A stretch of 64,000 nucleotides of DNA from a plasmid: the NCBI RefSeq assembly GCF_056746865.1, contig NZ_JBWKMP010000003.1. One strand, given 5' to 3'. Positions 9,411 through 29,842 of the stretch are shown here, piece by piece. Below the pieces are notes generated by a model that did not search any database, was not told the DNA's origin, and was given only the letters and a program-made list of their open reading frames with translations. The translations under genes and the position numbers were made by a program. The first letter of the stretch is position 1; each line of letters starts with the position of its first letter.

Positions 9411-9416
9411 TAGTAG

Positions 9417-10509: not shown

Positions 10510-10632
10510 AGCGTTTTACCTCAATGATACTGTTTATTCATACAGTATACATTGAAAAGGCATAGTTTGTGAAAGCGGGGTTTGTAGGCGCGCCACGCTG
10601 GGGGCTAATCACATTTCTCCCCCATCTTGCCG

Positions 10633-10884: not shown

Positions 10885-10886
10885 AT

Positions 10887-11153: not shown

Positions 11154-11198
11154 ATACAAAAATCCCCTCTGTGAATTGAGGGGATTTTAGCATGGTGA

Positions 11199-12187: not shown

Positions 12188-12196
12188 TATATAAAT

Positions 12197-12490: not shown

Positions 12491-12497
12491 ACTTACC

Positions 12498-12620
12498 TCA
12501 CTTAATAAAACAACTCCATGCGTAGTTGATGATTTTTTCCCACGTAATATAAATCTGCACTCCGGCAGTAAAACCAAAGCCAACAATTGCTGAAAAAATC
12601 AAAACATTTACTTTTGACAT
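12498..12620 (-). CDS. small hydrophobic peptide (40 aa)
   Basis: MSKVNVLIFSAIVGFGFTAGVQIYITWEKIINYAWSCFIK; ORF found by eye, below the track's size cutoff. Confidence 0.25.
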   Translation of the reverse strand: MSKVNVLIFSAIVGFGFTAGVQIYITWEKIINYAWSCFIK

Positions 12621-12668
12621 TATAAATTTTCTCTCGGTGTCGTAGGTGATAGCACCATAATTGATAAT

Positions 12669-12902
12669 TTAGTGAGTTAGCAGTTCCATTTTTTTGATGA
12701 TTTCCGCATGAGCATCATCGTTATCAACACTTAGCTCGTTTAATGCTTCTCGCACTACATCAACTTCTTCAGGCTGAAAGAAGTCGTCGCGGTAATCACC
12801 AAATAGAACCGAAACCAGCCTGCCACCAGCAACATCAAGATTGGCGCTAACAGGTGGCTCTTTGCCATCCTCAAATTCGACTACAAAAGTTAATTTTCCC
12901 AT
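12669..12902 (-). CDS. hypothetical protein
   Basis: 77-aa acidic ORF in the operon frame chain. Confidence 0.4.
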   Translation of the reverse strand: MGKLTFVVEFEDGKEPPVSANLDVAGGRLVSVLFGDYRDDFFQPEEVDVVREALNELSVDNDDAHAEIIKKMELLTH

Positions 12903-12978
12903 CGTTACCCCCAGAAGATAAAAATAGCGGCAATCGCCATAGCTACGCCTACAATCGCAAATGCTTCAGGCCAGCTTA

Positions 12979-13239
12979 TTACCTCACCTCCAGTCTCCAT
13001 ACCGCCTGACCAATCCGGCTGGCATGGGTATCTTTGGATACTGTTCCATCTTTAGCCAGCTCCATAAGAATTTTGCGCAAATCTGCCGAACGCCATTCTT
13101 CATCAGGAAATTCCTTCTCCATTGCCAACCGCAGATTCCAGGTTGCTATCGTGAATGGATATTCCCCGCCGAGAGCTTTCTCTTGCAGGGCAGCACGGGA
13201 ACGTATCACCTGCAAAACCTTCTCTTTTACATCCATCAT
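12979..13239 (-). CDS. hypothetical protein
   Basis: Start at ATG with AGGAGG Shine-Dalgarno (MMDVKEKV..); overlaps the stop of the upstream gene. Confidence 0.35.
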   Translation of the reverse strand: MMDVKEKVLQVIRSRAALQEKALGGEYPFTIATWNLRLAMEKEFPDEEWRSADLRKILMELAKDGTVSKDTHASRIGQAVWRLEVR

Positions 13240-13934
13240 TTTGCCTCCTGCGGCGGTTCTGGTAGCGGCATCCAGTGTGATGGTATCCACGACGCACCAG
13301 GTATTACCCACCCATCATTAGCGTCAGGATGCCCCGGGATGTAAGTCGCCCATTTCATTCGCCAGTCACCTTTCCTGTCAAACTCCCTGGCAACAAGAAC
13401 GGCTGTTTTGGTATCCGGCATTCGCTCACTACAGCTTATCCAACTATCCGGAATTACCGGATAGTTGCCCGACAGCTTGTTCAACTTGTAAGTCTGGCTT
13501 ACAGGTTTGGCACCATGAAGCATGGCGTCGCTCCGCTCTATGCCATCCAGCGCGATTCGCAGTGCCTGAATTGTGGTAGAGCTATCGTTTGGGGCTATTC
13601 CATATCGCTCGAATACAGCTAAATGGTTGCGCATAATCTCAGGCGTAAGCTCTTTGTAAGCATAAGCAAGAGACTCTGATGCATTATCCGGCACAACCGA
13701 CGCAAGCGCGGCAGCATAAACAGGAATAACGTCCACTTGCTCTTTATTGCTTTCATCCGTTAAAGCCCAGAATAATTTCCCGGCCGGATGTTTGAAAATA
13801 TAAGCAATTGGTTCTGCTTCCAGCGATGCCAGAGCAATTTCATACGACCGTCGCTCAATATTGTCTCGCACGTCCAGGCTGCTGATACGCTCTTTGATTT
13901 CTTTAATCAGTTCTTTGTCGGTTAAAGTGGTCAT
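13236..13934 (-). CDS. DUF551-domain protein
   Basis: C-terminal segment (TAVLVAREFDRKGDW...WIPSHWMPLPEPP) matches the DUF551 signature as recalled. Confidence 0.5.
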   Translation of the reverse strand: MTTLTDKELIKEIKERISSLDVRDNIERRSYEIALASLEAEPIAYIFKHPAGKLFWALTDESNKEQVDVIPVYAAALASVVPDNASESLAYAYKELTPEIMRNHLAVFERYGIAPNDSSTTIQALRIALDGIERSDAMLHGAKPVSQTYKLNKLSGNYPVIPDSWISCSERMPDTKTAVLVAREFDRKGDWRMKWATYIPGHPDANDGWVIPGASWIPSHWMPLPEPPQEAK

Positions 13935-13944
13935 AAATTATGCC

Positions 13945-14181
13945 TCAGTTGTATCCGATTGGATTAACCGCAACAAGAACGCCATCCGCGAACAAATCTT
14001 TAATGAGGTGTTCGCTCGGCTCGCCTTTTTCGTACTCTTCAATAAGGTAAGTGTCTCCATCTTCATTGATATAAACAGGAAGGATGGAGCCGTTGATAAA
14101 GTAGGTTCCGTTGTTATCGAGGATTTTTGCCTCGGCGATTTGTTTTTTGGTAAAACGCTCTTCTTTTGTCAAAGTTGCCAT
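13945..14181 (-). CDS. hypothetical protein
   Basis: Start at the internal ATG (MATLTKEERF..). Confidence 0.35.
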   Translation of the reverse strand: MATLTKEERFTKKQIAEAKILDNNGTYFINGSILPVYINEDGDTYLIEEYEKGEPSEHLIKDLFADGVLVAVNPIGYN

Positions 14182-14182
14182 A

Positions 14183-14401
14183 TCAGCTTTCCTTATATGG
14201 GTTGATTTTGTTGTGCAATGTGTTGAACGACGCCCATACCACGTCGTTATACAATTCAATAACTGGCTCAATTATTTTCCCGATTCCCCATACCAGAATT
14301 AACGGGGATATCGGTATCATCAACACGATAAACAGAATGAGAAACAGAAATTCTGTTATTCGGCTTCTTTGCGGATATTCTTTTCTGAATAATGTTGGCA
14401 C
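14183..14401 (-). CDS. small membrane protein
   Basis: GTG start after AAGGAGAG; hydrophobic core ITEFLFLILFIVLMIPISPLILVWGIG. Confidence 0.35.
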   Translation of the reverse strand: MPTLFRKEYPQRSRITEFLFLILFIVLMIPISPLILVWGIGKIIEPVIELYNDVVWASFNTLHNKINPYKES

Positions 14402-14402
14402 A

Positions 14403-14624
14403 TCACTCTCCTTTGCCCGCAGCTTTCGCCTGCTCTTTAGCAAGTCGCTCCGCTTCTCTGAAATCCCAATCCACTCGATGTGCGATATCAATTGCAGAAC
14501 GCACGGTTCGTTCAATTAGCGTATCCAGGTTATCAATTGTCATTGCCATATCTGGATTTCGAGATAAAATCTCCGCCCTCTGAATCTGCCAGTTGTTACA
14601 GGTTTCAAGTAATGAGTTAGCCAT
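14403..14624 (-). CDS. hypothetical protein
   Basis: ATG preceded by AAGGAGA (MANSLLETCNNWQ..). Confidence 0.4.
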   Translation of the reverse strand: MANSLLETCNNWQIQRAEILSRNPDMAMTIDNLDTLIERTVRSAIDIAHRVDWDFREAERLAKEQAKAAGKGE

Positions 14625-14625
14625 A

Positions 14626-14814
14626 TCACTCTCCTTTAGTGCGCAAGTGGTTTTTCCAGCGGTTTTGCGCCGCGCTGGGCTTTTTGCAAAAACCACAATC
14701 CATCATCCCGTAATATTTCATCAACCCCATCCGTCGGTTGCTGAGTCTCACCCACTGCCAGACGCCAGGAGCGTTTCTACGAACTAACAGAATCTTTGCT
14801 TTACGGTTTTTCAT
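14626..14814 (-). CDS. small basic protein (MKNRKAK family, copy 1)
   Basis: 62 aa, Lys/Arg-rich, with CGFC; start overlaps the stop of copy 2 (ATGA). Confidence 0.4.
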   Translation of the reverse strand: MKNRKAKILLVRRNAPGVWQWVRLSNRRMGLMKYYGMMDCGFCKKPSAAQNRWKNHLRTKGE

Positions 14815-14987
14815 CTTACAGCGTACCCTTTCTTCCGCCTGTTCTGTGACGCAGTAGGCTTACGCTTTGCGGCAAAAGCCACCTGACCAAATGGATGGAG
14901 TACCGCTATCTTATGGTTGCTAATAACCAGCTCCACCACACGCACAGGTCGCTGTAAAAAAAGTCGTTTTGCCTTACGGTTTTTCAT
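14811..14987 (-). CDS. small basic protein (MKNRKAK family, copy 2)
   Basis: 58 aa (MKNRKAKRLFLQRPVRV..); AGGAGAG Shine-Dalgarno; found by eye, below the track cutoff. Confidence 0.35.
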   Translation of the reverse strand: MKNRKAKRLFLQRPVRVVELVISNHKIAVLHPFGQVAFAAKRKPTASQNRRKKGYAVR

Positions 14988-15079
14988 CGCTTTGCTCTCC
15001 TGCGTCTCTTTGCTGCTCGTCGTGCCGCTGCAATACCGGTATGGCGGCGCTTTGGTGCCGGGATGATGTTGTCAGCCAT
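14984..15079 (-). CDS. tiny Arg-rich ORF (31 aa)
   Basis: MADNIIPAPKRRHTGIAAARRAAKRRRRAKR; stop overlaps the next ATG; no clear Shine-Dalgarno. Confidence 0.2.
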   Translation of the reverse strand: MADNIIPAPKRRHTGIAAARRAAKRRRRAKR

Positions 15080-15159
15080 CAGGACATACGGCTTTGCAAT
15101 TAGCGCAGAAGCCCAAAAACGAGTCGGGTACGGTAACAAGCCGATACATGCCACACGCA

Positions 15160-15912
15160 TTACTCACCTCCTTTGATGCGAATGCCTGCGGCGCGGATTG
15201 CAGCGATGACTTCAGAAACTTTGTATGCCATTACCGTTTGGTAATCATCGTGAAAATCTGTTCGATGAAGCATGCTGCTACGTTCCGGGAGCGATATTTC
15301 CCGAGCATCCAGTTCCTTAACGCGTTCCTCCAGTTCGTAGACCCTGCATTGTTCTCTATCATCAATCAGATATACCCCAAGACATTCGCTTTCTACCCAA
15401 CCGCCAAAATCATGATCGTAACGCTCACATGAAAACTCACCGTCACCGTCCTTTGTTGGAATGGTGTAACTATCTAATGGGCCACCATATGTCGGCACAT
15501 TTCCCAATGTTGGATGCTCAATCCACATGAAAAATGCACGTCCGGTTATTGGGCAAATATCTGGCCGCCATTGGTTACGAACAGCCTTGGTTTCGGATAA
15601 TTCTTCAGCGTGTTGTTTTACTTCCTCAAGCTCAACTCTCAGCTTCCCTACCGTTAGCGCAATATCCTCGTTCTCCTGATCGCGGCGTTTTATGTATTGC
15701 TGGTTTCTTTCCCGTTCATCCAGCAGCGCCAGCACGGTTTCTGGTCCGGTCAGAAATTTGAAGGCGTTGAGCGCATCAATATCCACACCGTAATCTTTAA
15801 GTTCCTGTTCACTTAACAAATCATCATCAGCTGGCAACATTAACAGGCGTTCCATTGCTGGAATTGCACGTTCCGCCGCCTCACGCAGTGCCTGGTAATT
15901 AATTTCGCTCAC
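15160..15912 (-). CDS. Ea22-like family protein
   Basis: Contains [35 protein letters not shown] and the C-terminal [10 protein letters not shown] typical of Ea22-like prophage proteins; GTG start overlaps the upstream stop. Confidence 0.6.
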   Translation of the reverse strand: MSEINYQALREAAERAIPAMERLLMLPADDDLLSEQELKDYGVDIDALNAFKFLTGPETVLALLDERERNQQYIKRRDQENEDIALTVGKLRVELEEVKQHAEELSETKAVRNQWRPDICPITGRAFFMWIEHPTLGNVPTYGGPLDSYTIPTKDGDGEFSCERYDHDFGGWVESECLGVYLIDDREQCRVYELEERVKELDAREISLPERSSMLHRTDFHDDYQTVMAYKVSEVIAAIRAAGIRIKGGE

Positions 15913-16571
15913 TGGTTGCCTCCTTTGCGAAGCTGGGCAGCAAAGTCAACTAACCACTCAGTCATTTCAACCTTCCCTACCAGGTCGGAACCAGGGTGCA
16001 TACAGCAATCACTCTGCGCCGCTTTGAAATCCTTACACTCATATTCTTTGGCCACCAGATTTTTTGCAGCTTCTATAGCAGCATCCACCCCCTGCGCCCG
16101 CACTTCAGCCAGAAAAGCATCGGTAGCTGGAGTTTCGCTGTGGTGTAGGGCATCGTTGATAATCATTGCAGCAACACCAGCCTGCCCTGCATCCGTGACC
16201 GACACATGCTCAAGAGTTACGGCCATTGCGTGTTTCAGCCCAGCGTTCTCTGCCACCAGCGCAGCGATATTAGTCTCAAGCTCTGAAATTCGGCACGTGG
16301 CATCAATATTTGTGTCCTCCAAGCACTTAATTTCACCAAGCAGCTCCAGTGCAACCTTTGGGTTGAACGCGGCAACATGACGAGCGTTGTTCTCTGCATT
16401 TTTCTGTCCATCAAAGCCGGTCCATTTGATAACGTCTTCACATCGTTCATCACCGGGCGTGTGCACCGCATAAGTACCAGTATCCGTCGAAATAAATGCG
16501 ACCCATTCGTCTGGTGTTGCCTTTTCTGCCGCCTCACGCAGTACCTGATAGTCAATTGTCATTCTCGCCAT
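15909..16571 (-). CDS. accessory protein, [13 protein letters not shown] / QLRKGGNQ paralog family
   Basis: Shares the TDAFLAE(V/I)RA motif and C-terminal QLRKGGNQ with 21036-21803, 22951-23454 and 17200-17439. Confidence 0.5.
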   Translation of the reverse strand: MARMTIDYQVLREAAEKATPDEWVAFISTDTGTYAVHTPGDERCEDVIKWTGFDGQKNAENNARHVAAFNPKVALELLGEIKCLEDTNIDATCRISELETNIAALVAENAGLKHAMAVTLEHVSVTDAGQAGVAAMIINDALHHSETPATDAFLAEVRAQGVDAAIEAAKNLVAKEYECKDFKAAQSDCCMHPGSDLVGKVEMTEWLVDFAAQLRKGGNQ

Positions 16572-17203
16572 CCTTCACAGTTGTAATCACTACAGCCTTC
16601 AAAATCATATGGGCTGTACTGCCAGGTTATTTTTCCGCAATGCGGACAATTCCAACGCACCTTCCCGCTTCGCGACTTCTTTCTTCTGTTCTGCTCTTTC
16701 AACCAGTCAGGCATGATCAAACCTGCGCCCTGAACCATTGTTCTGCGGTTAAAGTTATTGATATTGAACGTCCGGCGCTTTGCTGCATCAGCAATGGAAA
16801 ATGGCAACCAAACTATTCCTGGTTCGTTTTTGTTGGCGACGCTAAAGATGGTCGCTTTACTGAAGTCATCTGTTGGCAATCCACCGTGTTGAAGCCAGTA
16901 AACATCGTTGCCGTTCCAGCTACCTTTTTTGTAGGCCACATACGCAGTGCAATCTGACTCAATCAGGCTTTCTGTAGGGATGTACTGGCAATCAACGTGC
17001 CACACAGCCATTGCATCCACGCTATCAGCGCAAACAGGCTGATCGATATCTCGCCCACAATTCCAGGCTTTTTGGGCTTCTTCCAGCGTGTAAACATGAG
17101 CGCGATCGATATCAGAGCTATAACCATTGCCGTTATGGCAATGGAATGAGGCGTTATTACCCACAGTTTCACGCAAGCACATCATGTAAAAACGGTTACT
17201 CAC
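16559..17203 (-). CDS. zinc-ribbon protein
   Basis: GTG start overlapping the upstream stop after AAGGAGG; C-terminal CPHCG...CEGW zinc ribbon. Confidence 0.45.
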   Translation of the reverse strand: MSNRFYMMCLRETVGNNASFHCHNGNGYSSDIDRAHVYTLEEAQKAWNCGRDIDQPVCADSVDAMAVWHVDCQYIPTESLIESDCTAYVAYKKGSWNGNDVYWLQHGGLPTDDFSKATIFSVANKNEPGIVWLPFSIADAAKRRTFNINNFNRRTMVQGAGLIMPDWLKEQNRRKKSRSGKVRWNCPHCGKITWQYSPYDFEGCSDYNCEGWRE

Positions 17204-17439
17204 TGGTTGCCTCCTTGGCGGAGTTGCGCTGCGATGCATGAAAAAAAAGACTCCCGAGTGTGACAGTTAAGAGCTGGTGCGAACGCCGCGTTAAGAACGG
17301 CGGCATCACAGCCGTCATCAATATAGAGCGCAATTTTTTTCTCCAGGCGCGCTTTGGCTTCCTGCAACTGCATACCCCGGCACGCACGCGGGATATAATC
17401 AGCAATTTGAGCGATAGCTTTTTCGTTCTGTTTAAACAT
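17200..17439 (-). CDS. small protein with C-terminal AAQLRQGGNQ
   Basis: 79 aa; its conserved C-terminal codons double as the Shine-Dalgarno for the next gene. Confidence 0.45.
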   Translation of the reverse strand: MFKQNEKAIAQIADYIPRACRGMQLQEAKARLEKKIALYIDDGCDAAVLNAAFAPALNCHTRESFFSCIAAQLRQGGNQ

Positions 17440-17635
17440 GCTTCACCTCGATAGGCTTGATGGTGTCTAACAGCAGTCGGCGGCGCGTATTTTCTGCAAA
17501 ATGGCGGCGTCCAGTTTCTTTGTGGTAAAACTCGTTTTTGCCGACGACCCACATCCGCTCTGTTTGGTGCAGTTTTTTTACCTTCGGGCCATCTTTGGTG
17601 ATCACGGTACCGGTATGGGTTTTTACGATTGTCAT
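17432..17635 (-). CDS. hypothetical protein
   Basis: 67-aa basic ORF within the operon chain. Confidence 0.35.
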   Translation of the reverse strand: MTIVKTHTGTVITKDGPKVKKLHQTERMWVVGKNEFYHKETGRRHFAENTRRRLLLDTIKPIEVKHV

Positions 17636-17718
17636 GCCACTACCTATTCGAACAGATGAACGAGACAGGCCGATGCTCGTCCACCTGAAAAACTGACGAT
17701 TTGATGCATACTCACGGT

Positions 17719-18447
17719 TTATTCCTGAATGCGCTTAAACTCGATTACCCACACCCAGGGATTAGCGTTCCAGCTTTCTTCACCATAGATGGATTCCCAC
17801 AGGCGCTGGAACGCAACCTTGGCCATTGCGAAATCCCCCTTGGGAGTAAGGAATGTTCCCGGGTGATCAGGAAGCAAACTTCCAGCAGGCGGAACGCCCT
17901 CAGCCCTTGCATCGCATTCGCTGATATCGTTCAACCGTTCAACGCGCACGTTGGTAATTTCCAACAGAATGCGTGATGCCCATCGCGGCATGTGAATTGA
18001 TGGACGCCACCCACCATCAAACTTTTCATTCACAGTGTGAGGTTTCCAGTCGGCATCATCGGGTATCGACCATAAGCCGTAATCACCAGGTTTTTGCTCG
18101 CAACTGGCCCGATAAATCCTTGCTGCGTTCTTCTCATCGCCACGACAAAGGTTGTCGTTCCAGTCCACACTGCAACCATCCTCATTGCCTAATATCGCCC
18201 ATGTTTCACGAACCCAAATTCGATCGCCGACGATACCAAATGGGCAATTGAAAACACTGCTTACACCATCAGCCCCGTACCACTGAAAACCTGCACCAAT
18301 TTTTCTAACCATCACTGGTGCTTCTGGACCAACTTCCGCAGGCTGATTTTTCATTATCCGCCGCGTCTGCGTTTTCCTTCCTTCGAGGATGGCCCGGACC
18401 ATCTCATCGTTAAAAATCATCCCGCGTTCTTTCATTTTTTGATCCAC
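17719..18447 (-). CDS. ASCH-domain-like protein
   Basis: N-terminal FNDEMVRAILEGRKTQTRR and C-terminal WVWVIEFKRI resemble YqfB-type ASCH proteins. Confidence 0.45.
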   Translation of the reverse strand: MDQKMKERGMIFNDEMVRAILEGRKTQTRRIMKNQPAEVGPEAPVMVRKIGAGFQWYGADGVSSVFNCPFGIVGDRIWVRETWAILGNEDGCSVDWNDNLCRGDEKNAARIYRASCEQKPGDYGLWSIPDDADWKPHTVNEKFDGGWRPSIHMPRWASRILLEITNVRVERLNDISECDARAEGVPPAGSLLPDHPGTFLTPKGDFAMAKVAFQRLWESIYGEESWNANPWVWVIEFKRIQE

Positions 18448-18451
18448 TCCA

Positions 18452-19447
18452 TCAGTTATTGAACGTGATCACTCCGCGCTCGATGGCGAAGTCGAAAAGC
18501 TGGTTGGCGGCTACGTAAAGGCGTATGCCATGTGCTTTTTCCCATGCCCGGACATCGTTTTCTGCGCTTCTGGCGCATTCATCGCAAAGAGGAACGGCCC
18601 AGCGATCGTGTTCGTTTAACGAGCGGGCGCGGTACATGAACGGGTGATTAACTTTGCCTCCGCATCCGATGCACGGACGAGAAATCACAAACCGGAGATA
18701 AGCCGGGCTTTTACCGAGAACCGCTTTTGGTCGGCGCATATACAGCAGGCCGGAATCCTCATCTACAGACAGGTTGACGATCTGCTCTGCGGTTATGTCC
18801 ACCAGCTCACGGGTGCTGTGCTCCCAGGTGATATCCGATTCTTTCAGTGTGCCGGTAGGGATTTCCTGTTTTGGCTGACAAAATGCAATGCGACCGGCTT
18901 CATCTGGCAGCTCGTCTTTCAGATTCCGGCGAATGGCCCAAAAAGTGAGTTCAACCATGCTCAGATCGCGTTCTGGCGGTAGTTTTAACTCGCTCGCAGC
19001 CCAGTTCATAACCCAGTTGGCACGATTCAGGGATAACTGGTCATCCAGCTTGCCGTACCCCTTCATCATGTATTCCGCATCATGCTTCCAGCACAGGCGA
19101 ACGGCAGAGCCGTTATAGAAATGAGTGGTTAGCTGGTGGCTGCAATCGCGCTTATCGTGCGCCTGGCAATCGTGGATATTGGAACTTACCCAATGAACAA
19201 GCGAATCTTCACCGCCTAATGCGTTAAATACGCGCTCGCTTTGAAAAAATGCTTTCAGAGACTGGTTGGCAACCAGCGAATAGTTCAGATCCACTACGCC
19301 ATCTGGCGTGTTTTCAGCCTGTTCGCGCGGAAGTGGAGAGATAATGAAACGGCGACCTGCGCCAATGTAGTTGCTGGTGGGCTTGTCTACCGGAAAGACA
19401 GCCACACCAGCTCCGTTTACGAAATGAGGTGTGATTATTGCACTCAT
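18452..19447 (-). CDS. DUF968-like protein with a C-terminal Ref/HNH-like Cys-His cluster
   Basis: RPCIGCGG..H....VPLCDEC at the C-terminus, similar in pattern to the ref-like gene at 24641. Confidence 0.45.
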   Translation of the reverse strand: MSAIITPHFVNGAGVAVFPVDKPTSNYIGAGRRFIISPLPREQAENTPDGVVDLNYSLVANQSLKAFFQSERVFNALGGEDSLVHWVSSNIHDCQAHDKRDCSHQLTTHFYNGSAVRLCWKHDAEYMMKGYGKLDDQLSLNRANWVMNWAASELKLPPERDLSMVELTFWAIRRNLKDELPDEAGRIAFCQPKQEIPTGTLKESDITWEHSTRELVDITAEQIVNLSVDEDSGLLYMRRPKAVLGKSPAYLRFVISRPCIGCGGKVNHPFMYRARSLNEHDRWAVPLCDECARSAENDVRAWEKAHGIRLYVAANQLFDFAIERGVITFNN

Positions 19448-19490
19448 AATGTATACCGACTCTGTTTTGTTCCGAGCGGTAAAATAATAT

Positions 19491-19520
19491 GTTAGAAAAT
19501 TAAAATCAATATTCTAACAC
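19491..19520. promoter_or_regulatory. operator-like imperfect palindrome (internal promoter region)
   Basis: GTTAGAAAAT..ATTCTAACAC between the phosphatase gene and the DUF968-like gene. Confidence 0.4.
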
Positions 19521-19551
19521 GGTTTTGAGTGCATAAACGATGTGTTCAGGA

Positions 19552-20238
19552 TTACGGCTGGCCTCCCTTCACCTGCTTTAGCGTCAGATTTCCGCAAAAA
19601 ACCGCGCCAGTGTCTATGTAGTGCTGGTTCCAGAAAGATTTCGGGCTGTTTACTGGCGTATGCCCGAAAATAAAGCTATCTGCACCAGTGATCATTCCAC
19701 CAACACCATCAACCGCGTCATAAAATCGCTCACGCCGCCAGGTAACATTGAGATCGCTAACAGGTTTACCAAACTGGTATTCGTTATCAGGATAGTCGGC
19801 ATGGGCTATAACGATAGTTTCATGCCCGGTGTTCAACTCAATGATATAGGGTAAACGTCTTACCAGCTCCACCAGCGCCCTGGCTAATATTTCCCGATCA
19901 GCGTCCAGCATGAAGAACCATTGGCCGCCATTCATTAGCCAGTTATTCACGTTGCCTGCGGGGCTTAACGCATCGATCATTAATCGCTCGTGGTTTCCCA
20001 TAACCGACCGAAACCAGGGCATCTGCAATAGCTCCAAGCATTCAACATTTTCGGTGCCGCGATCGATAAGGTCGCCAACCGATATCAGTAAATCCTGTGT
20101 CGGGTCAAAGTCCACACGATGAAGTTCAGACATCAATCTGGTGTAGCAACCATGCAGATCACCAACAACCCATATGTTTCTGTAGCCTGAACCATCAATA
20201 CGGCCATATAAATTCACTTCATGCAGCGCCTGGGTCAT
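19552..20238 (-). CDS. Ser/Thr protein phosphatase (lambda PP / NinI-like)
   Basis: Metallophosphoesterase motifs GDLHG, GDLIDRG, GNHE; start at the internal ATG. Confidence 0.75.
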
Positions 20239-20546
20239 GCGGCAACCTTCTCCCGCAGCCAGATACAAACCGGGCCATCTTCAGTGTCATGAATAGAGCC
20301 AACAAACCATCCTTCGCCCTCTGGTCGCTCTGGTTCCCAGGCGGCAATATCGGGACCATCTGCGTCCAGATTAAAATGATCTTCATCCATACTGCGAATA
20401 GTCCACTGAAGATTATTATCCTTCATCCAGGCGTCAAATTCCTCAGTGGATATATATTCACGACCTGCGCAAAACTTTTCATATTCCGGATGTGTCCAGC
20501 AGCCATATTCATCACGTTCTACCGGCATTTCTTTAATGATGCTCAC
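20235..20546 (-). CDS. hypothetical protein
   Basis: 103 aa; start and stop overlap the neighbouring genes. Confidence 0.4.
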
Positions 20547-22072: not shown

Positions 22073-22073
22073 C

Positions 22074-22724
22074 TCACTCTCCTTTGATGCGAATGCCAGC
22101 GGCACGGGAGTCATTCCATCGCTTTACTTCTTCACGAATTACGTCAATGCATTCTTTCGAATCCATTAGGTAATCTTCATCAAAAAGCCTTTCCTGTTCG
22201 TTTTCTATCGCAACAATGATTGCTTCAACTAACTTTTGTGCCTGAGAACCACTTTCTAACTCTGCAATGCGCTTCTCTGCGGCTTCCAGCTTCTCGCGCA
22301 TATCGTCAACGTACTCGACCAGAGATCCGCCAGCAGGAATTTCGCACTCCTCGACCAGTTGGAAGTAGATATCAGCTGCGGCCCGTGTGTTGCTATGCCT
22401 AGCGTCGCCCATCTCACCTTCACGAAGAGCATCGCGTTCGGCGGTAAGATTGGCTATTTTGCTGTCTTTGCCTTCAAGCTCAACGCGCAGCTTCCCTACC
22501 GTTAGCGCAATATCCTCGTTCTCCTGGTCGCGGCGTTTTATGTATTGCTGGTTTCTTTCCCGTTCATCCAGCAGCGCCAGCACAATGTGTGGCGTTATCA
22601 AGGACTCAAATTCGGCAACAGCTTGCTCACCTCGCTTGTAATTCTTAATCCCACCTAAATCTTTCGCGTTCTGTGCCGCCTCACGCAGCGCCAGTGTGTC
22701 GATGTCGATGTCGATGTTGCTCAT
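22074..22724 (-). CDS. Ea22-like family protein
   Basis: Shares the [35 protein letters not shown] block and C-terminal AAGIRIKGE with 15160-15912. Confidence 0.55.
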
Positions 22725-22954
22725 TGTGCCTCCTCGATTTCGTCCCATTCCACCCAGGCATTCTCTCCATCAGCATCGATTTCACCTTTGTGACCGCATT
22801 TGGAACAAACGGCCTCATCACCCGCCCACAAAGAATCTTTGGTTACCGACCATCCTGTTACCCTGGCTTTGCCGTGCTGGCACCTAGGGCAATCATCAAG
22901 CCATTCGACTTCGACCGTTGAAGGACCAAATCCATGTTCAGTTCGGATGCTCAT
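22721..22954 (-). CDS. zinc-ribbon protein
   Basis: CPRCQHG...CSKCGH; AAGGAG Shine-Dalgarno; overlaps the upstream stop. Confidence 0.45.
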   Translation of the reverse strand: MSIRTEHGFGPSTVEVEWLDDCPRCQHGKARVTGWSVTKDSLWAGDEAVCSKCGHKGEIDADGENAWVEWDEIEEAQ

Positions 22955-23454
22955 GACTGAACTCCTTTGCGAATCTGTTCCGCCCATTCTTCAAGGGATT
23001 TCTCCGCATATTCACCGGACAGGCCATCAATCGGATGCGGTTCATTAGCCAACTCTTCTTTCGCTGACAAAATCATGCGTGTAACGTCGAAAACTTCACG
23101 CAAAGACTTATTGATAAATCCGTGATTGAACGCAGCAGCAAGACGGCTTGCGGTGTAGTTAATCCCCTCGTTGCGTGCCTCCGCACGTATTTCAGCCAGG
23201 AAAGCGTCGGTGGCTGACATATTTCCTGTTGCCTTCATGGCCTTCAAAATAACCAGAACGCCATCTTGCCCAACCAACTCGGAGATAATCTCAGTGTTGT
23301 CGCCAACAACCTCACAGAATGCCTGAACAGCTTTACGAGCAAGTGCATTCTCCGCCGCCAGCGCCGCGCGCTCTTTCTCAAGTCGGGAAATTTCCGTTAC
23401 ATACTCAGCGTTACGCTCTGCCAGTTGTGCGGGCGTTAAACCTTCAGACTTCAT
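22951..23454 (-). CDS. accessory protein, TDAFLAEIRA paralog family
   Basis: 167 aa; motif family as 15909-16571. Confidence 0.45.
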   Translation of the reverse strand: MKSEGLTPAQLAERNAEYVTEISRLEKERAALAAENALARKAVQAFCEVVGDNTEIISELVGQDGVLVILKAMKATGNMSATDAFLAEIRAEARNEGINYTASRLAAAFNHGFINKSLREVFDVTRMILSAKEELANEPHPIDGLSGEYAEKSLEEWAEQIRKGVQS

Positions 23455-23728
23455 GCACTCTCCTTTCGAAATAAACGTACTGATTAATCATGCCCAGGGG
23501 CATTTCGAACTTTTCTGCGATCTCACGGCGGGGAACGCCACACTGATGAAGCTGCCGCGCCAGCTCTATATCGCTCTGCCGGTATTTGGCTGACTGGTGA
23601 AAGTCACCTTTCAGAATCATGCTGATCCGCAATTGCCGCGCTTTAGTCCTGACAGCACCACCGGTACGCCCGATCAGTCTCCCAATACCCTCGACTGTCA
23701 TAGTCCCGGCGCACTGGCGGAGTATCAT
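23444..23728 (-). CDS. putative DNA-binding protein
   Basis: Two helix-turn-helix-like repeats (GRLIGRTGGAVRTKARQL and GVPRREIAEKFEMP). Confidence 0.35.
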   Translation of the reverse strand: MILRQCAGTMTVEGIGRLIGRTGGAVRTKARQLRISMILKGDFHQSAKYRQSDIELARQLHQCGVPRREIAEKFEMPLGMINQYVYFERRVHEV

Positions 23729-23757
23729 GATTTCTGCCCTTCCCCATCCCCGCCAGC

Positions 23758-24369
23758 TCACGCAGAACTCCTTCTAACCAAAAGAACGCCATCTTCAGAA
23801 ACAACGTTGCAGGACTTCAGGTAATTCATTGCCTCTTTCGGTAATGGATTCTTTGGATCGGCGCTTGCCAGGGATTTCGATAACCTCATGATAAATTTGA
23901 TCATTACCTTCTGACGGAGCTTGTGCTCATGGGATGCAGACAGGTAATAGGAAATGGTATGGGCTAAACGCTCACGAAGCTGTTCTGTGCCGTGATATAC
24001 AGCAGCGATATCACGCAGTGCATTGACCAGTTCCCGGTAAATATGCGGAGCAACCTGGCATTCAATGTTGGTTGGTGACTCATAAATTACATTCAGCCCC
24101 AGCTTTTGAGCCAGCTCGTGCTCTGCACGAGCGCCAACTGATTCCTCCCACCCCTTGAGCAAATAGACCGCATTAGCCGAACGCACCATTGCAAGGCAAA
24201 TATCCATGTATTCGCTCTGGCAGAGGCCAGCAGGTAACAGCGCCGGATTCAGAACAATATGCCCTACCTCCATCAGCTCTTTTGCTTTCGAAAAAAACGC
24301 TGTGCGGTTGTAGTCGGGATAACCAGTCATCGGACCCGCGATGTAAATTTTCATAATGCGTTTTGACAT
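23758..24369 (-). CDS. DUF4406 (nucleoside 2-deoxyribosyltransferase-like) protein
   Basis: MKIYIAGPMTGYPDYN N-terminal signature; start at the internal ATG. Confidence 0.55.
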   Translation of the reverse strand: MSKRIMKIYIAGPMTGYPDYNRTAFFSKAKELMEVGHIVLNPALLPAGLCQSEYMDICLAMVRSANAVYLLKGWEESVGARAEHELAQKLGLNVIYESPTNIECQVAPHIYRELVNALRDIAAVYHGTEQLRERLAHTISYYLSASHEHKLRQKVMIKFIMRLSKSLASADPKNPLPKEAMNYLKSCNVVSEDGVLLVRRSSA

Positions 24370-24521
24370 CAAAGTTTCCCCAGGAACGTTACGCAAAAGT
24401 TAATGAGAGCAAAGAGTTCAATGCCCAGCTCAAACAACGCCAGGACAGTGAAAAACAGGGCATATAGCAACCCAATTTCTGTACCGGATTGCTGGTGGAT
24501 TGCACTTATTGCGACAAGCAT
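24369..24521 (-). CDS. small hydrophobic peptide, first gene of the leftward operon
   Basis: 50 aa; GGAGG Shine-Dalgarno; stop overlaps the DUF4406 ATG (TGATG). Confidence 0.3.
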   Translation of the reverse strand: MLVAISAIHQQSGTEIGLLYALFFTVLALFELGIELFALINFCVTFLGKL

Positions 24522-24564
24522 CATGACCTCCTGATATAGCGTCTGAAAAAAGTATCTTCATTTT

Positions 24565-24596
24565 GTGTTAGAAAATCAATTTTGATTTTCTAACAC
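24565..24596. promoter_or_regulatory. palindromic operator in the divergent promoter region
   Basis: GTGTTAGAAAATCAA-tt-TTGATTTTCTAACAC; 15-bp arms, perfect apart from the centre. Confidence 0.55.
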
Positions 24597-24640
24597 TTTT
24601 GATCAACCATAGCGGCGATGTAGACAAACCGGGTATTTCT

Positions 24641-25216
24641 ATGAAGCAAAGCTATTGGGAGAAACAGACACAAAAAGCCCTGCAAAAACTGGCTGATCCG
24701 AAATGGCGGGAGGAACAAAGGGCAAAGCGTCTTCAGCAAGCTCAACGCCAGCAGCAGCGTGCGCGAGAAAAAGCCGCATCGCCTGAATATCGGCAAAAGA
24801 AAATTGAAAAAGCGAAGCAATATGAACAGCGAAGAAAAGAGAAGGCCGCTTCTGCTCCTGTCAAAAAAACTCGCGCGTCACGCGGCCTGAAAGGCAGAAC
24901 ACTCACAGCAGATGAGCGCCGGATACAAACTGCCATCGGTGCTCTCCCCTGCATTGCCTGCCATATGCACGGACAGCATAGCCCTGTGGTATCCCTGCAC
25001 CACATCTTCGGGAGAACAGCAGAAAACGCGCATAAATACGTCCTCCCTTTGTGTAAATGGCACCATCAACACGCAGCGCCAGCAGAGATCCGCGAGCAAT
25101 ACCCCTGGTTGGTTCCTGTTCATGCTGATGGAAAAATAGGCGGCAAAGCAGATTTCAGGCGGCACAATGCTGATGAAATGACGTTGTATCAGATGGTGAC
25201 TGAATTAATAAATTAA
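24641..25216 (+). CDS. ref: Ref-like HNH endonuclease (recombination enhancement function)
   Basis: Highly charged, basic N-terminal region followed by a Cys/His HNH-like core (CIACHMHG...LPLCKWHH); start at ATG 24641, not the track's TTG. Confidence 0.5.
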   Translation: MKQSYWEKQTQKALQKLADPKWREEQRAKRLQQAQRQQQRAREKAASPEYRQKKIEKAKQYEQRRKEKAASAPVKKTRASRGLKGRTLTADERRIQTAIGALPCIACHMHGQHSPVVSLHHIFGRTAENAHKYVLPLCKWHHQHAAPAEIREQYPWLVPVHADGKIGGKADFRRHNADEMTLYQMVTELIN

Positions 25217-25547
25217 TTTTCTAACATTTTAAGTTGAATTGTGAAATTCGCCGTTGTACATTCACAACCGATTGGTACACCGGTCAACTTTTTGAGACAA
25301 ACCGTTTGGTTTTTCGTATGATTGCCGCCGCCATACCAATGGCGGTGCAATATAGGTGGCTGAAAAGCCCCCGTTGACTCACGGTGTTCCAACCTTTATT
25401 GCGCCGCCACCAGACCGTGGAACAGTCGATGGCGGCTCCGAAAGCAAGGAGTCACTACACTATGAACAGCTACTGTCTTTTCCCATCACTCGTTATCCGC
25501 CACTCACGCGATAATCTGCATTCTTTACTCGCGCTGGGGGTGTCAAA

Positions 25548-25715
25548 ATGACCGTTCGCTATCTCAACTTTCAAATCCAGAACATCACTGGCGGTTGCTA
25601 TGACTGGTTTGTCACTCTCGGAAAAGAAGTGATCACCGGGAAGCTGGATGAAGTGAAAGCTAAAGCAATGGCCTACGCCTGCAAGCAAGCCCAAAAGAAG
25701 AAAAGAAAAGCATAA
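25548..25715 (+). CDS. small ORF (55 aa) with Lys-rich tail
   Basis: GGGGGTG Shine-Dalgarno; found by eye. Confidence 0.25.
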   Translation: MTVRYLNFQIQNITGGCYDWFVTLGKEVITGKLDEVKAKAMAYACKQAQKKKRKA

Positions 25716-25818
25716 GAAAACACACAGTTGCGCCCTGGCATTATCGTGGGGTATATTTCTACGGCACCTTAGAAAAACGGGTGCCGGGATTGGAACCCCG
25801 GATAATGTCAAAGGCGAC

Positions 25819-25846
25819 ACAGACGCCGAACGCGTCTTTTTTTGTG
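25819..25846 (+). terminator. hairpin with T-run between target site 1 and the c4-like RNA
   Basis: AGACGC-cgaac-GCGTCT followed by TTTTTTGTG; short stem. Confidence 0.35.
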
Positions 25847-25892
25847 TCATGCCATCGCACAGCCATACTTAGCGTTTAGCTCAGAGATCAAT

Positions 25893-25972
25893 GGTAGTGC
25901 TGGCTGGGCTGCCGAAAGGCAGGCCGGTTCCCTTTGACGCCGGTAGTTCCAACCCAGTCAGTGCTACCGCCA
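25893..25972 (+). ncRNA. c4-like antisense regulatory RNA (immI-type)
   Basis: About 80 nt; acceptor-like stem GGTAGTGC / GTGCTACC followed by G-CCA; internal GNRA hairpin CTGCC-gaaa-GGCAG; single-stranded CCCTTTGAC and GTTCCAACC complementary to sites at 25787-25814 and 25975-26020. Confidence 0.4.
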
Positions 25973-26028
25973 TTGAGATTGGAACCTCACGCGGTAGCTC
26001 CTTAACTTAGTCAAAGGAGGCTGCCAAT

Positions 26029-26244
26029 ATGGCTACTATCCCTACCCCAACTCATTCTGAATTTATCTGGCGTTTCTATTCCTGCCAAAAACACCTTTAT
26101 ATCTGCGTAATGGCTGCTACCGAAGCAGAGGCGCGCTCATACCTTCCCGAAGAACCCTGCATTTTTGCTGCTCGCTTCACTCTTGATGCGATGGAGATCC
26201 TCAATTACTGGAATCTGCCAATGAACTGCGTGGAGGTGCACTGA
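26029..26244 (+). CDS. Icd-like small protein, translationally coupled to ant
   Basis: 71 aa; AAGGAGG Shine-Dalgarno lies inside the predicted antisense target; stop overlaps the ant ATG. Confidence 0.45.
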   Translation: MATIPTPTHSEFIWRFYSCQKHLYICVMAATEAEARSYLPEEPCIFAARFTLDAMEILNYWNLPMNCVEVH

Positions 26245-27185
26245 TGAATCTGTCCATCTCTCAAAAAGCGACAATGACCAGCATTGAGATCGCGGAACTG
26301 GTAGGAAGTCGCCCAGATAGTGTGAAGAGAACTATCGAAACACTGGCTAAAAAGAGTGTGATTCAATTTCCACAATCTGTGGAAATTGAAAATAAACAAT
26401 CAGTTGGCCCTCGTCGATTTTCCAAGGCTTACATCTTTGAAGGCGAACAAGGAAAACGAGACAGCATCATTGTCGTCGCGCAGCTCTCTCCGGAATTTAC
26501 CGCCCGGCTGGTGGACCGCTGGCGCGAACTGGAGAATGCCCGGGTACAGTTAAAATCCAAAGCCGAAATCCTGGCCGAAATGGCGCAAATGCATCTTGAG
26601 CATGAACGCCGGATCAACGCCGTTAATGCCCAGGTAGCCGAAGTATCGGCACAAGTGTCCAGGGTCACCGAAACACTTGAGCAGATCAAGAAAGGCAATA
26701 TTCCAGAAGGCTACATTGGCTATCGCCAGTTGGCGGCAAAATGCGGCCTGACTGAAGCCAAATGCCGCAACCTGGTCAACGCTTACCGGATACCCACTGA
26801 TACGCATGAGTTTTTAACTCCCGACGGTTTGCTTGCGCGACGCTCCATTGTGGCCCTGGCCCCCTTCCGGAAAGCCTTTAAGCAGGTTATGTCGGAGGCA
26901 GAACCACGTAACAAACGCTGGTATCATCCCAGGATGGGGCTATTTCAGGCCATTCACCATCCTGTGCCTGAAAGTCCAAAGGCAAACCTGTCGTTGCATA
27001 CCGCCAGAGAGAAGATTAAAACAGGGTATGCAACCGTATGCCGTCGAGCATCCTGGCCTGAAAGTGTCTGGGTATGGCCCGAAAGAGGCTCACGGAAAAA
27101 CTGGCGCACCATTCGCGACGGCAAGATCTGTGCGATTGATTTACAGCCAGAAGATGTAGCAGCGACCGACTGGATTGTTAGTTAA
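26244..27185 (+). CDS. antirepressor-like protein (Rha-type N-terminal domain)
   Basis: N-terminal TSIEIAELVGSRPDSVKRTIETL resembles the Rha / phage-antirepressor N-domain; occupies the ant position. Confidence 0.55.
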   Translation: MNLSISQKATMTSIEIAELVGSRPDSVKRTIETLAKKSVIQFPQSVEIENKQSVGPRRFSKAYIFEGEQGKRDSIIVVAQLSPEFTARLVDRWRELENARVQLKSKAEILAEMAQMHLEHERRINAVNAQVAEVSAQVSRVTETLEQIKKGNIPEGYIGYRQLAAKCGLTEAKCRNLVNAYRIPTDTHEFLTPDGLLARRSIVALAPFRKAFKQVMSEAEPRNKRWYHPRMGLFQAIHHPVPESPKANLSLHTAREKIKTGYATVCRRASWPESVWVWPERGSRKNWRTIRDGKICAIDLQPEDVAATDWIVS

Positions 27186-27191
27186 TAGATT

Positions 27192-27215
27192 TGCCCCGGT
27201 CATGCCGGGGCTTTA
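27192..27215 (+). terminator. intrinsic terminator after ant
   Basis: GCCCCGG-tcat-GCCGGGGC followed by TTTAAC. Confidence 0.45.
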
Positions 27216-27223
27216 ACTACTAA

Positions 27224-27562
27224 GTGACCGGACACAGCAAAATGTATGCCACGAAAAAAATTGATTTCACTTATTCTTCCGCCACAATTGAGCGGCGCTT
27301 CACCCTCATTAGAGAGTTGGAACTGTCAAAAGTCTGGTATCAAATTCTACTGGATGAAGAGTTCTCACTGATGATAATGGCTGAAAAAGAAGCAATGCCG
27401 AATGACCGGCATAAAGTCATTGCCAGCCTTGACCTGGTGACAAACAGATACTGGGAGACAGAGGAACTGCGTGAAGCGGGAGTAATTCGTGACCTGATGG
27501 AGAGTTCCGTTCCCCGCCGCTATCGTGCGGGAAACGAAATCTCCGTGATTAAAGGGGCTTAA
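27224..27562 (+). CDS. hypothetical protein (start uncertain)
   Basis: 112-aa track ORF; the true start may be the ATG at 27242. Confidence 0.35.
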   Translation: MTGHSKMYATKKIDFTYSSATIERRFTLIRELELSKVWYQILLDEEFSLMIMAEKEAMPNDRHKVIASLDLVTNRYWETEELREAGVIRDLMESSVPRRYRAGNEISVIKGA

Positions 27563-27951
27563 AGCTCACCAGCACGCTGTTTTTCAAGCGTAGATTTAAC
27601 ATTGGGCGCTTTCCCTTTAAAAGAATGGAAAGTGCCACATTTTTCTGTTTTAACCTCGCGCAGAGCTTCGCCATCGGCGTTCTGCCATTGATGAGATAAC
27701 GTCATATCACCGCGAGAAGGAACATCCAGCGAGTACAACGTGTAAGTTCCCCCCATCTCGGCATACTCCTGGAACACATAGCTCATTACGTCAGATTCAG
27801 TTTTCCGGTGCGCGTTATCGACCTTATTCCCATTCAGAAATATGGCGTTCGGATAGATTTTTATATCAAACCTACCGCACTTCACTTGTAAATTCCCGGC
27901 GTGAGCGATCAAAGGGAAAGCTGCCAATAAAGCAATAGCTAATCTTTTCAA
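27559..27951 (-). CDS. secreted protein
   Basis: N-terminal signal peptide MKRLAIALLAAFPLIAHA. Confidence 0.5.
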   Translation of the reverse strand: MKRLAIALLAAFPLIAHAGNLQVKCGRFDIKIYPNAIFLNGNKVDNAHRKTESDVMSYVFQEYAEMGGTYTLYSLDVPSRGDMTLSHQWQNADGEALREVKTEKCGTFHSFKGKAPNVKSTLEKQRAGEL

Positions 27952-27971
27952 TTCTGCCTCCGCTGCGTAAC

Positions 27972-28592
27972 TTATTGCCCGTATTGTTTACACCATTGCT
28001 CTGCCATTTGTGGGGCTAAAGGCCCAGCCACTGCGCTGTATTCTGCTGTTTTGCTTTGCACGCATGAGGCAGATGGTTTTTTATTGCGCTGTTCCTTGAG
28101 TTGTTTTTCATAGGCAACGATGGCATCGAAACCAGCTACATCTTCCTCCCTCATGAACCCTTTCTTGATCAGAAACTGCTGACCTTCCGGCACCAATGCT
28201 AGAGCATACAACGGCTGCAACAGCTCCCCCAATCCTTCCCGGCTATAAACTTGAAACTGCATCCAGCTTTTACTTAACGCTGTCATAGTGTCTTTGGTGG
28301 AATAGCCAGCCTTGCGTATAGCCTTGTCTAATCGATCTGCTGAATACGCAAACAAACAGAAATCGCCCTTTCCTGTAAACCCCGGTTCAACCGGTTGCAA
28401 CGTGATATTTTCTTTTTCGCAAAAGTCTATAAATTCATCAGGTCTATCGGTTTTATAGTCCCGCAATACCTTCAGTCCAGCCTCATACTTTGCAGGTAAC
28501 GCGCCTGCATAGGCAGCATTAAGAGAAACTCCCCCCAATATAACCGCGAGCACTGCTCCCAAAACCCTTAACTTCACAAAACCATCCTTCAT
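27972..28592 (-). CDS. secreted protein
   Basis: Start at the internal ATG; signal peptide MKDGFVKLRVLGAVLAVILGGVSLNAAYA. Confidence 0.5.
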   Translation of the reverse strand: MKDGFVKLRVLGAVLAVILGGVSLNAAYAGALPAKYEAGLKVLRDYKTDRPDEFIDFCEKENITLQPVEPGFTGKGDFCLFAYSADRLDKAIRKAGYSTKDTMTALSKSWMQFQVYSREGLGELLQPLYALALVPEGQQFLIKKGFMREEDVAGFDAIVAYEKQLKEQRNKKPSASCVQSKTAEYSAVAGPLAPQMAEQWCKQYGQ

Positions 28593-28802
28593 GTAAACAA
28601 ACTGAAGTTTTATGTTACAAAAGCAAACATCTACGCCAAAATGACTTAGGCCAAATTCAGCGCGAATAAAAAAATCAAAAAAATTGTTGACACTATTCTG
28701 GAAATCACAATCTGGACAAAATCCATTGCGCAAACGGCTCCCGTTGAAGGTTCTTTTGACGACTAACTTTCAGCCGATGCGCGGTAGGGAGTCATAACGC
28801 CA

Positions 28803-28832
28803 AAGCAGGCCGCCATGTGCGGCCTTTTTTTG
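28803..28832 (+). terminator. intrinsic terminator with no upstream plus-strand ORF
   Basis: AGGCCGC-catgt-GCGGCCT followed by TTTTTTTGTG. Confidence 0.5.
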
Positions 28833-28857
28833 TGCCTGCTATCGTGGAGTAAAAGCC

Positions 28858-29511
28858 ATGCAAAAGATCGCAATATTCAGTCTTTCTACTAACAAGCCGC
28901 TGATGGCTACGGCAGTCCTGAAAGACGGCGCGCTTGTAATTGACAAAGTAAAGCCGCTCCCTGCATCTGCTATTGAACAAAAACGAAAAATTCCACCAGC
29001 AATTGCCGAGCTGCGTAAAAGTGAATTTAAGGTGCTGGTTGACGAAATCACGCCAACCATTTCAGCCGGTACAGGTGCCAGCCAGGTAACATTAAAAACA
29101 CGGCACGCCGACGGCAGAGCAGCGATCATTGTCGGCATGGAGAGATACCGGGAGCTGAAACTACAAAGGCTGCTATCCCTGCCTGACAAGAACAAAGGGG
29201 CATTTGAGATCCCCGACTCTATCGTCGATACCGAATACAACGGCAACGGTGAAGAGGTTTATCGAGTTAACTGGCAAGATATCCGACCAGAGCACATCCT
29301 GATGATTCTGTGCTGCTATGCAACGGTATACCACAATGTTGCCAGCGCGGATTACCTGAAACAAATGACAGGAGCGGTAGAGAAAGAAAACAAAGCAGGG
29401 ATAATGGCCTCGTTCCTGTCCATTATCAGCGATCAAAAAGCTAAAGCAGGAAATACCCAACCAAAATCGCTGGCCGGGCAAGTAATTGATGAAGATACGG
29501 TGATACTTTAA
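28858..29511 (+). CDS. hypothetical protein
   Basis: 217 aa; ATG with upstream GGAG. Confidence 0.5.
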   Translation: MQKIAIFSLSTNKPLMATAVLKDGALVIDKVKPLPASAIEQKRKIPPAIAELRKSEFKVLVDEITPTISAGTGASQVTLKTRHADGRAAIIVGMERYRELKLQRLLSLPDKNKGAFEIPDSIVDTEYNGNGEEVYRVNWQDIRPEHILMILCCYATVYHNVASADYLKQMTGAVEKENKAGIMASFLSIISDQKAKAGNTQPKSLAGQVIDEDTVIL

Positions 29512-29842
29512 TCAACTCAGTAGCTTTGTTAACTCCCTTAATACCAGGTAGAAGAGTAACAAAAATACTAACGCCAGTATTTGCGTGGTCAACGAGGCGT
29601 TCATAAACAGAACAATTAGCTTTAACAATTCGAGAATAACGTCCATGTCATTCACACTATTTAATTTTTAATCTACAGCCAGCAAACAATGAAGCTGGCC
29701 CCCGCATAAAGATTAATGAAAGTCACTTGTCACCAGTGAGGGGATTTATGAACCACATCCCCCTGAACTGGTGGACTGTCTGTTTCTCGCATTTCACACC
29801 CTGCATACAGTTCCCCCCAGGTTATGACTGTGAGGAACTGTT

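Follow-up and report, generated by a model that had tools for sequence, protein, structure and literature searches.

Very small bacterial membrane proteins have been reviewed as a group that takes in single-helix regulators such as MgrB as well as type I toxins, and the same review names txpA/ratA and bsrG/SR4 of Bacillus subtilis as prophage stabilisers (PMC12648545). Here we analyse three short open reading frames (ORF1 to ORF3) that resemble members of both groups, in a 64,000-nucleotide stretch of plasmid DNA (contig NZ_JBWKMP010000003.1 of assembly GCF_056746865.1; hereafter the window), which by its sequence is a D6-like, P1-family phage-plasmid of Escherichia coli. With the type I toxins (Hok/Gef, Ldr, TisB, Ibs, ShoB and ZorO, and TxpA and BsrG of B. 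subtilis prophages) the three share a length below 60 amino acids, one hydrophobic helix and a location on a mobile element; with the single-helix regulators (MgrB, AcrZ and MgtS) they share the size, the single helix and conserved motifs of polar or small residues within the membrane, which point to binding between helices. They have no sequence or hidden Markov model (HMM) similarity to the toxins and no homology to the regulators, from which they also differ in being phage-borne. Orthologues that agree with them in genome position and orientation are SJ46 gp090 for ORF1, D6 orf88 for ORF2 and D6 orf77 for ORF3. We regard it as likely that all three genes are real and encode inner-membrane proteins of very small size (40, 50 and 44 residues, each with one predicted membrane helix), accessory parts of the phage-plasmid that are probably not toxins.

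The preliminary description of the window had listed three short ORFs for hydrophobic peptides, and each was recovered with exactly these lengths at exactly the coordinates given in Table 1. It placed ORF3 on the minus strand, which is correct, and was silent on the strand of ORF1 and ORF2, which are on the minus strand as well. The hydrophobic character is borne out: among the 135 ATG-initiated ORFs of 38-60 residues in the window, ORF3, ORF2 and ORF1 rank first, second and fourth, their most hydrophobic 19-residue stretches reaching 2.30, 2.25 and 1.83 on the Kyte-Doolittle scale. None of the three overlaps a longer gene; each occupies a gap between such genes. This sets them apart from the other high-ranking ORFs, two of which (20578-20730 and 16963-17127) were dismissed because they overlap annotated genes out of frame. 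A comparison with related elements, which the preliminary description had proposed as a check, found the frames conserved and under purifying selection. Each ORF keeps its exact length in relatives with only 56-76% DNA identity, and each has an excess of synonymous changes in its own frame (Fisher p 6e-10 for ORF2, window versus D6, with 26/36 synonymous and 18/114 non-synonymous; 1e-6 for ORF3, between the relatives L012 and L006; 8e-4 for ORF1, against phage homologues), while the other two frames of the same strand have no such excess. Variable sites follow the order third, first, second codon position, with counts of 36/23/16 in ORF2 and 28/21/11 in ORF3. Judged by these patterns, ORF1, ORF2 and ORF3 are separate, genuine protein-coding genes.

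That the ORFs are unannotated, as had been claimed, holds only in part. All three have named counterparts in SJ46 or D6, and the claim is correct for ORF1 and ORF3 in the RefSeq-annotated relatives examined, where these two are never called and ORF2 is called in some only. Among the PHROG families, each of them without an assigned function, the HMM matches run end to end: phrog_5525 for ORF1 (E 1.2e-24, positions 1-40 of 40), phrog_8890 for ORF2 (6.9e-31, 1-50 of 50) and phrog_38362 for ORF3 (2.6e-23, 1-43 of 44). Sequence searches of Pfam, NCBIfam, PADLOC and the PDB with the three ORFs gave nothing above chance, and a search of 5.8 billion proteins returned close relatives only. Family members are already listed in relatives as "hypothetical proteins"; they are, by prediction, ordinary uncharacterised small membrane proteins.

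ORF2 had been described as the first gene of an accessory operon, and so it is: it heads a leftward operon that extends as a gene array of about 15 kb, and RefSeq annotates it in the nearest plasmid. Its first ATG, at 24524, would give 51 residues; as this codon reads ACA in two relatives, the conserved start is the second ATG, at 24521, and the call of 50 residues is right. Eleven related loci were compared. ORF2 is intact with exactly 50 codons in nine of them, at 66-76% nucleotide identity; one of the other two is a visibly error-ridden record, and the second, L012, is considered below. The ratio of non-synonymous to synonymous divergence (dN/dS, by the Nei-Gojobori method) lies at 0.06-0.42 in frame and at 0.3-3.9 in the other two frames. 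Invariant residues occupy 21 of the 50 columns and include the core LALxELGIELFA, with two glutamates on one helix face. AlphaFold2 predicts one continuous helix over residues 2-49, confident from residue 21 on. The identity to D6 orf88 is 70%, and a profile search of 1.84 billion representative proteins found three members, which confines the family to D6-like elements. The ribosome-binding site is kept as GGAGG or GGGAG in all lineages, and the TGATG overlap between the stop codon of ORF2 and the start codon of the DUF4406-family gene is kept in all aligned loci. This one-base overlap speaks for translational coupling of the two genes.

ORF1 has a hydrophobic helix at about residues 4-27 and two conserved motifs, IGFGxxAG, which contains a GxxxG-like motif of small residues, and the tail YI(T/A)WE..IN.AWS. 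It was found in 224 PLSDB plasmids at about 94-100% identity, and close relatives differ by four synonymous and six conservative non-synonymous changes. The decisive coding evidence comes from sequence comparison with the phages EC.W1-9 and phiv142-3, which carry annotated homologues of exactly 40 codons directly after the ea22/eaa gene, with an AGGAGG ribosome site and overlapping neighbours. These match ORF1 at 52% of amino acids (tblastn E 6e-8) and 56% of nucleotides, and have a GC content of 48-50% against 33% for ORF1. Synonymous sites are near saturation (0.73) and non-synonymous divergence is 0.36; the in-frame ratio of non-synonymous to synonymous differences (pN/pS) is 0.39-0.49. No neighbouring gene is common to the P1-like and the lambdoid contexts. 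This rules out a two-gene module that would include ORF1, and indicates that it moves as a single-gene cassette. The likeness to the early-left or "ea" regions of lambdoid phages extends to the window itself, where the leftward array is rich in ead/Ea22-like, DUF551, DUF968 and similar genes. We know of no small membrane protein of an ea region that has an assigned role.

The immediate downstream neighbour of ORF1 is a 97-residue gene whose GAGG ribosome site overlaps the ORF1 stop codon (TGAGGTAAGTATG); a gap of 7 nt separates the two, and its ATG is at 12490. One gene further downstream, an ORF of 123 residues (11816-12187, minus strand) encodes an extended hydrophobic segment (LHLWLLGFIAAVVGIAVWPFIFWLVAVVVWF), probably two membrane helices, and after it a tail rich in lysine, so that this part of the array would hold several membrane proteins. 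A fourth, smaller hydrophobic ORF, absent from the preliminary description, lies at 12905-12979 on the minus strand, with an alternative start at 13000. Its family reads MSWPEAFA(I/T)VG... and is conserved at 72% nucleotide identity. The protein has 24 residues in SJ46 and 27 in three P1-like plasmids, where a GGAGGTG ribosome site precedes it and its end is 2 nt short of the ATG of the following gene; in the window the ATG is mutated to ATA, and an upstream ATG would give 31 residues.

At its N-terminus ORF3 has an amphipathic helix; after a kink at A17-S18 comes a membrane helix, and the tail, RELTKL, is invariant. The AlphaFold2 model (predicted local distance difference test score, pLDDT, 95) has helices at residues 2-16 and 19-43 on either side of the same kink. 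ORF3 is 86% identical to D6 orf77 and intact in all ten relatives examined, and its protein database family comprises 26 clusters, 20 of exactly 44 residues, from several hundred contigs. An upstream GTG at 29655 reads GTA in two relatives; at the other end, the stop codon abuts that of the convergent mat gene. The pN/pS ratio is 0.14-0.47 in frame against 0.5-4 in the other two frames. In L012 and in the E. fergusonii plasmid L006 the N-terminal half is unalignable as DNA and the length is unchanged. This half keeps the pattern of an amphipathic helix (MNIFNKLIDLLNKFISASL versus MDVILELLKLIVLFMNASL in the window). In both plasmids the C-terminal membrane helix and RELTKL are retained, and L006 has three synonymous changes in a row in its VLR codons. 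A tblastn search of phages with ORF3 gave no match, not even to D6, which has the gene; this was probably an effect of the low-complexity filter.

Upstream of ORF3, the hairpin of Table 1 keeps its stem in all relatives, with two more pairs in L006 and L012, and is not terminator-like on either strand. The block AAGTGACTTTCATTAATC beyond it is retained in relatives with and without a relE/higA insertion; those with the insertion read TTGACT-17-ATTAAT there, and the block may be part of the ORF3 promoter. The relE/higA module replaces 29731-29783 of the window in three relatives and leaves ORF3, the hairpin and the block unmoved. This cassette of about 720 bp (12464-13183 in L004, with equivalents in L006 and L012) lies between the upstream block of ORF3 and baseplate gene 26, has a promoter-like site and an operator-like palindrome of its own, and its presence varies among related plasmids, one of them with 99% identity to the window. 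In relatives without it, the segment 29700-29842 upstream of gene 26 is almost invariant, and the flanking genes are 83-90% identical. D6 annotates a 27-residue orf76 at the position that corresponds to 29723-29806 of the window, minus strand, for which the coding test is limited by too little variation. A P1-type late promoter upstream of ORF3 or gene 26 was considered and rejected, as neither the inverted repeat TCACT-N7-AGTGA nor the block AAGTGACTTTCATTAATC is found a second time in the window, and no perfect palindrome with 8-bp arms recurs.

Table 1. Positions of the three ORFs and of associated features in the window (aa, amino acids; bp, base pairs; nt, nucleotides)
Feature	Position	Strand	Remarks
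ORF1, gene for a predicted 40-aa small membrane protein	12498..12620	-	SJ46 gp090; sequence MSKVNVLIFSAIVGFGFTAGVQIYITWEKIINYAWSCFIK
ORF2, gene for a predicted 50-aa small membrane protein	24369..24521	-	D6 orf88, WP_157209371
ORF3, stand-alone gene, 44 aa	29512..29646	-	D6 orf77; sequence MDVILELLKLIVLFMNASL...
97-aa gene directly downstream of ORF1	12197..12490	-	294-nt homologue RefSeq-annotated in L015-L018
DUF4406-family gene	23758..24369	-	ATG overlaps ORF2 stop by one base (TGATG)
AGGAGG ribosome-binding site of ORF2	24527..24532	-	5 nt upstream of the conserved ATG
32-bp palindrome, perfect 14-bp arms	24565..24596		between ORF2 and the divergent ref gene
12-mer sites	5455-5466, 19491-19520, 24565-24596, 25214-25225, 35937-35965, 45347-45358, 48361-48372		
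Hairpin GCCAGC-N10-GCTGGC	29678..29699	-	about 30 nt upstream of ORF3 start
Conserved block AAGTGACTTTCATTAATC	29711..29728	-	upstream of the hairpin; unique in the window
isrK Rfam match	25764-25842	+	61 bits
C4 antisense RNA Rfam match	25887-25974	+	77 bits

Around the three ORFs, the window matches phage-plasmids of the P1 family. Positions 22667-30500 share 99.7% identity with NZ_LR890273.1, a plasmid of E. coli, and 83-87% with phage D6, and PLSDB holds about 119 D6-like plasmids, from E. coli, Salmonella and Shigella. The surroundings of ORF1 are mosaic, with matches to phage SJ46 of Salmonella (98%) and to many P1-like plasmids. More broadly, the left part of the accessory array (about 9000-22600) is mosaic, is not collinear with NZ_LR890273.1 and has blocks in common with SJ46 and P1-like plasmids, which points to recombinational shuffling of ea-type cassettes. 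At the gathering score, the only Rfam families in the window are C4 antisense RNA and an isrK-like RNA, both in the immunity region. These matches mark the immunity-I region upstream of icd/ant, as is expected in a P1-family element.

The palindrome that separates ORF2 from ref is a double copy of the 12-mer GTTAGAAAATCA and is kept in all lineages, even at loci with only 66% identity. In the form GTTAGAAAAT(T/C)A, the 12-mer has eight copies in the window against 0.43 expected, and three times the site is a palindromic double. All but one of the eight are found in gaps immediately before gene starts; the exception, at 48361, is the weakest match and falls within a long ORF. The half-site of the palindrome resembles the C1 operator of P1, ATTGCTCTAATAAATTT, and the ref gene of P1 is under C1 control. 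The palindrome looks like a repressor operator of C1 type for both the ORF2 and the ref transcription units, and in the 12-mer sites this element probably has a set of C1-type operators that differ from the P1 consensus. As ORF2 and its operon stand behind an operator-like palindrome shared with ref, they would probably be kept off by repressor in a lysogen, with early expression once the repressor is lifted or a new host is infected.

Together, the data suggest the following model. ORF2 would be translated from its strong ribosome site as the promoter-proximal cistron of the long leftward array, coupled to the DUF4406 gene. ORF1, about 12 kb downstream of ORF2 and in the same direction, would form a cassette of its own, exchanged between P1-like plasmids and the ea regions of lambdoid phages. 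Both would probably be expressed with early lytic genes, in contrast to regulators of the MgrB, AcrZ and MgtS type, which belong to a host stress regulon. ORF3 stands alone and faces against the late genes mat and 26, the usual layout for expression independent of the late programme; as a counter-oriented insert between late genes it is like the "morons" of phages, a category of position and not of function. Most likely, by analogy with known single-helix proteins, each peptide would insert into the inner membrane and act through helix-helix contacts, either by self-association or by modulating a larger membrane protein of host or phage. Candidate contact surfaces are the GxxxG-like motif of ORF1 and the invariant ExxxE stripe of ORF2.

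The preliminary description also suggested that the ORFs could be membrane-active peptides or small toxins. A membrane location fits the one dominant long hydrophobic helix that is predicted for each; toxin families, an antitoxin RNA and the layout of a toxin locus were not found. The toxin idea is thereby left unsupported rather than refuted, and on the sequence evidence ORF1 to ORF3 are probably not dedicated killing toxins. In size and hydropathy they are like type I toxins (below 60 residues with one membrane helix, peak values of 1.83-2.30, AlphaFold2 helices for ORF2 and ORF3), and ORF3 resembles them further: it has short charged ends, stands alone between two oppositely oriented genes, and converges with a neighbouring transcript in the manner of the prophage systems txpA/ratA and bsrG/SR4 of B. 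subtilis, pairs that overlap at their 3' ends. Since the stop codons of mat and ORF3 abut, the mat transcript must run into ORF3, and ORF3 might be the toxin of a type I or post-segregational killing module of the plasmid prophage, silenced by an antisense RNA such as the mat 3' end or an undescribed RNA; the insertion of the relE/higA addiction module at the same spot in relatives suggests that the site tolerates or collects such modules. We nevertheless consider this unlikely for ORF3, and even less likely for ORF1 and ORF2. At the ORF3 locus no Rfam antitoxin RNA was found, either at the gathering score or at E <= 10. No antisense promoter is conserved there, the sole promoter-like site (29378-29405) changing from GATAAT to CATACT in D6-type relatives, and ORF3 has no consensus promoter of its own. 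The fold of the ORF3 mRNA region is no more stable than that of shuffled sequence (z = -0.79), in contrast to hok-type mRNAs. No toxin, holin or defence family matches; Pfam and NCBIfam gave chance-level hits only (60KD_IMP, E 0.12; EPV_E5, E 0.2; CydH, E 0.15) and PADLOC gave none. For none of the three did we find isolation from other genes combined with a separate promoter and terminator and with a toxin mRNA whose structure hides the ribosome site; ORF1 and ORF2 are tightly packed operon cistrons, the ORF2 stop lying on the next start and the ORF1 stop on the next ribosome site, which makes their layout unlike that of a type I toxin locus. Similarly little weight goes to two more far-reaching proposals. 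In one, ORF3 would supply the toxin for a type I-like module, as yet undescribed, that serves D6-like phage-plasmids in addiction or abortive infection; it would be silenced by the antisense 3' end of mat and fire when mat transcription or the plasmid is lost. In the other, the invariant ExxxE helix of ORF2 would assemble into a small pore for cations and so depolarise the host soon after induction.

Three other explanations are less probable still. ORF2 could be a mere leader, whose translation opens the start site of the DUF4406 gene while the peptide itself has no function. Its position as first cistron, the strong ribosome site, the one-base overlap and the codons near its end that double as the DUF4406 ribosome site (GGGGAAA or GGAGAAA) would all suit such a device. 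However, the amino acid sequence is constrained over its full length, with dN/dS down to 0.06 and 21 of 50 columns invariant, the invariant ELGIELFA is far from the junction, and the length of 50 codons is fixed across 34% DNA divergence, so that we find the leader explanation improbable. A role of the three in lysis, as holins, pinholins or antiholins, appears more doubtful again. Small phage-encoded membrane helices with a charged C-terminus could be taken for such proteins, but no endolysin or spanin gene is nearby, the neighbours being DUF4406 and ref, mat and baseplate gene 26, and ea-type genes; no holin family of Pfam or PHROGs matches; and 40-50 residues with one helix is below the typical size of a holin. 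Just as remote is the idea that the ORFs are untranslated and owe their conservation to constraint on a DNA or RNA element or to recent common ancestry. It draws on the absence of ORF1 and ORF3 calls in the RefSeq-annotated relatives examined, on the weak or absent ribosome site of ORF3 in several lineages, and on the 3' half of ORF3, which is nearly identical as DNA in many relatives and could reflect recombination. It is at odds with the codon-position order of variable sites and the restriction of the synonymous excess to the proposed frame, with ORF1 homologues that are recognisable only at the protein level, and with the preservation of length, start and stop across indel-rich flanks.

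Several observations weigh against reading the three ORFs as expressed, non-toxic membrane protein genes of this element. No ribosome site is recognisable ahead of ORF3 in the window, where relatives carry GGAG, and a promoter and terminator scan found no consensus promoter for it. The ribosome site of ORF1 is weak in the window (GAGAG, 10 nt upstream), and the selection signal among its close relatives is non-significant (p 0.13). In L012, ORF2 carries a 1-nt frameshift, one extra G in a run of G, which means either that ORF2 is dispensable or that the L012 sequence is erroneous. The proposed operator is inferred from the recurrence of the motif and from comparison with the P1 C1-operator consensus ATTGCTCTAATAAATTT. 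Finally, small hydrophobic peptides are often toxic when over-produced.

Phage genomes are well known to carry short hydrophobic ORFs of this kind. The value of the result lies in annotation and in the candidates that it supplies for experiment; it is not surprising and opens no long-standing question. Gene callers are inconsistent on small membrane proteins, as the annotation of ORF1, ORF2 and ORF3 illustrates, and the purifying selection on all three justifies their annotation in the PLSDB plasmids of E. coli, Salmonella and Shigella, of which more than 100 are D6-like and more than 200 P1/SJ46-like. With the small fourth ORF, the three become four short, tractable candidates for effects of phage-plasmids on the host membrane, during early induction or during carriage.

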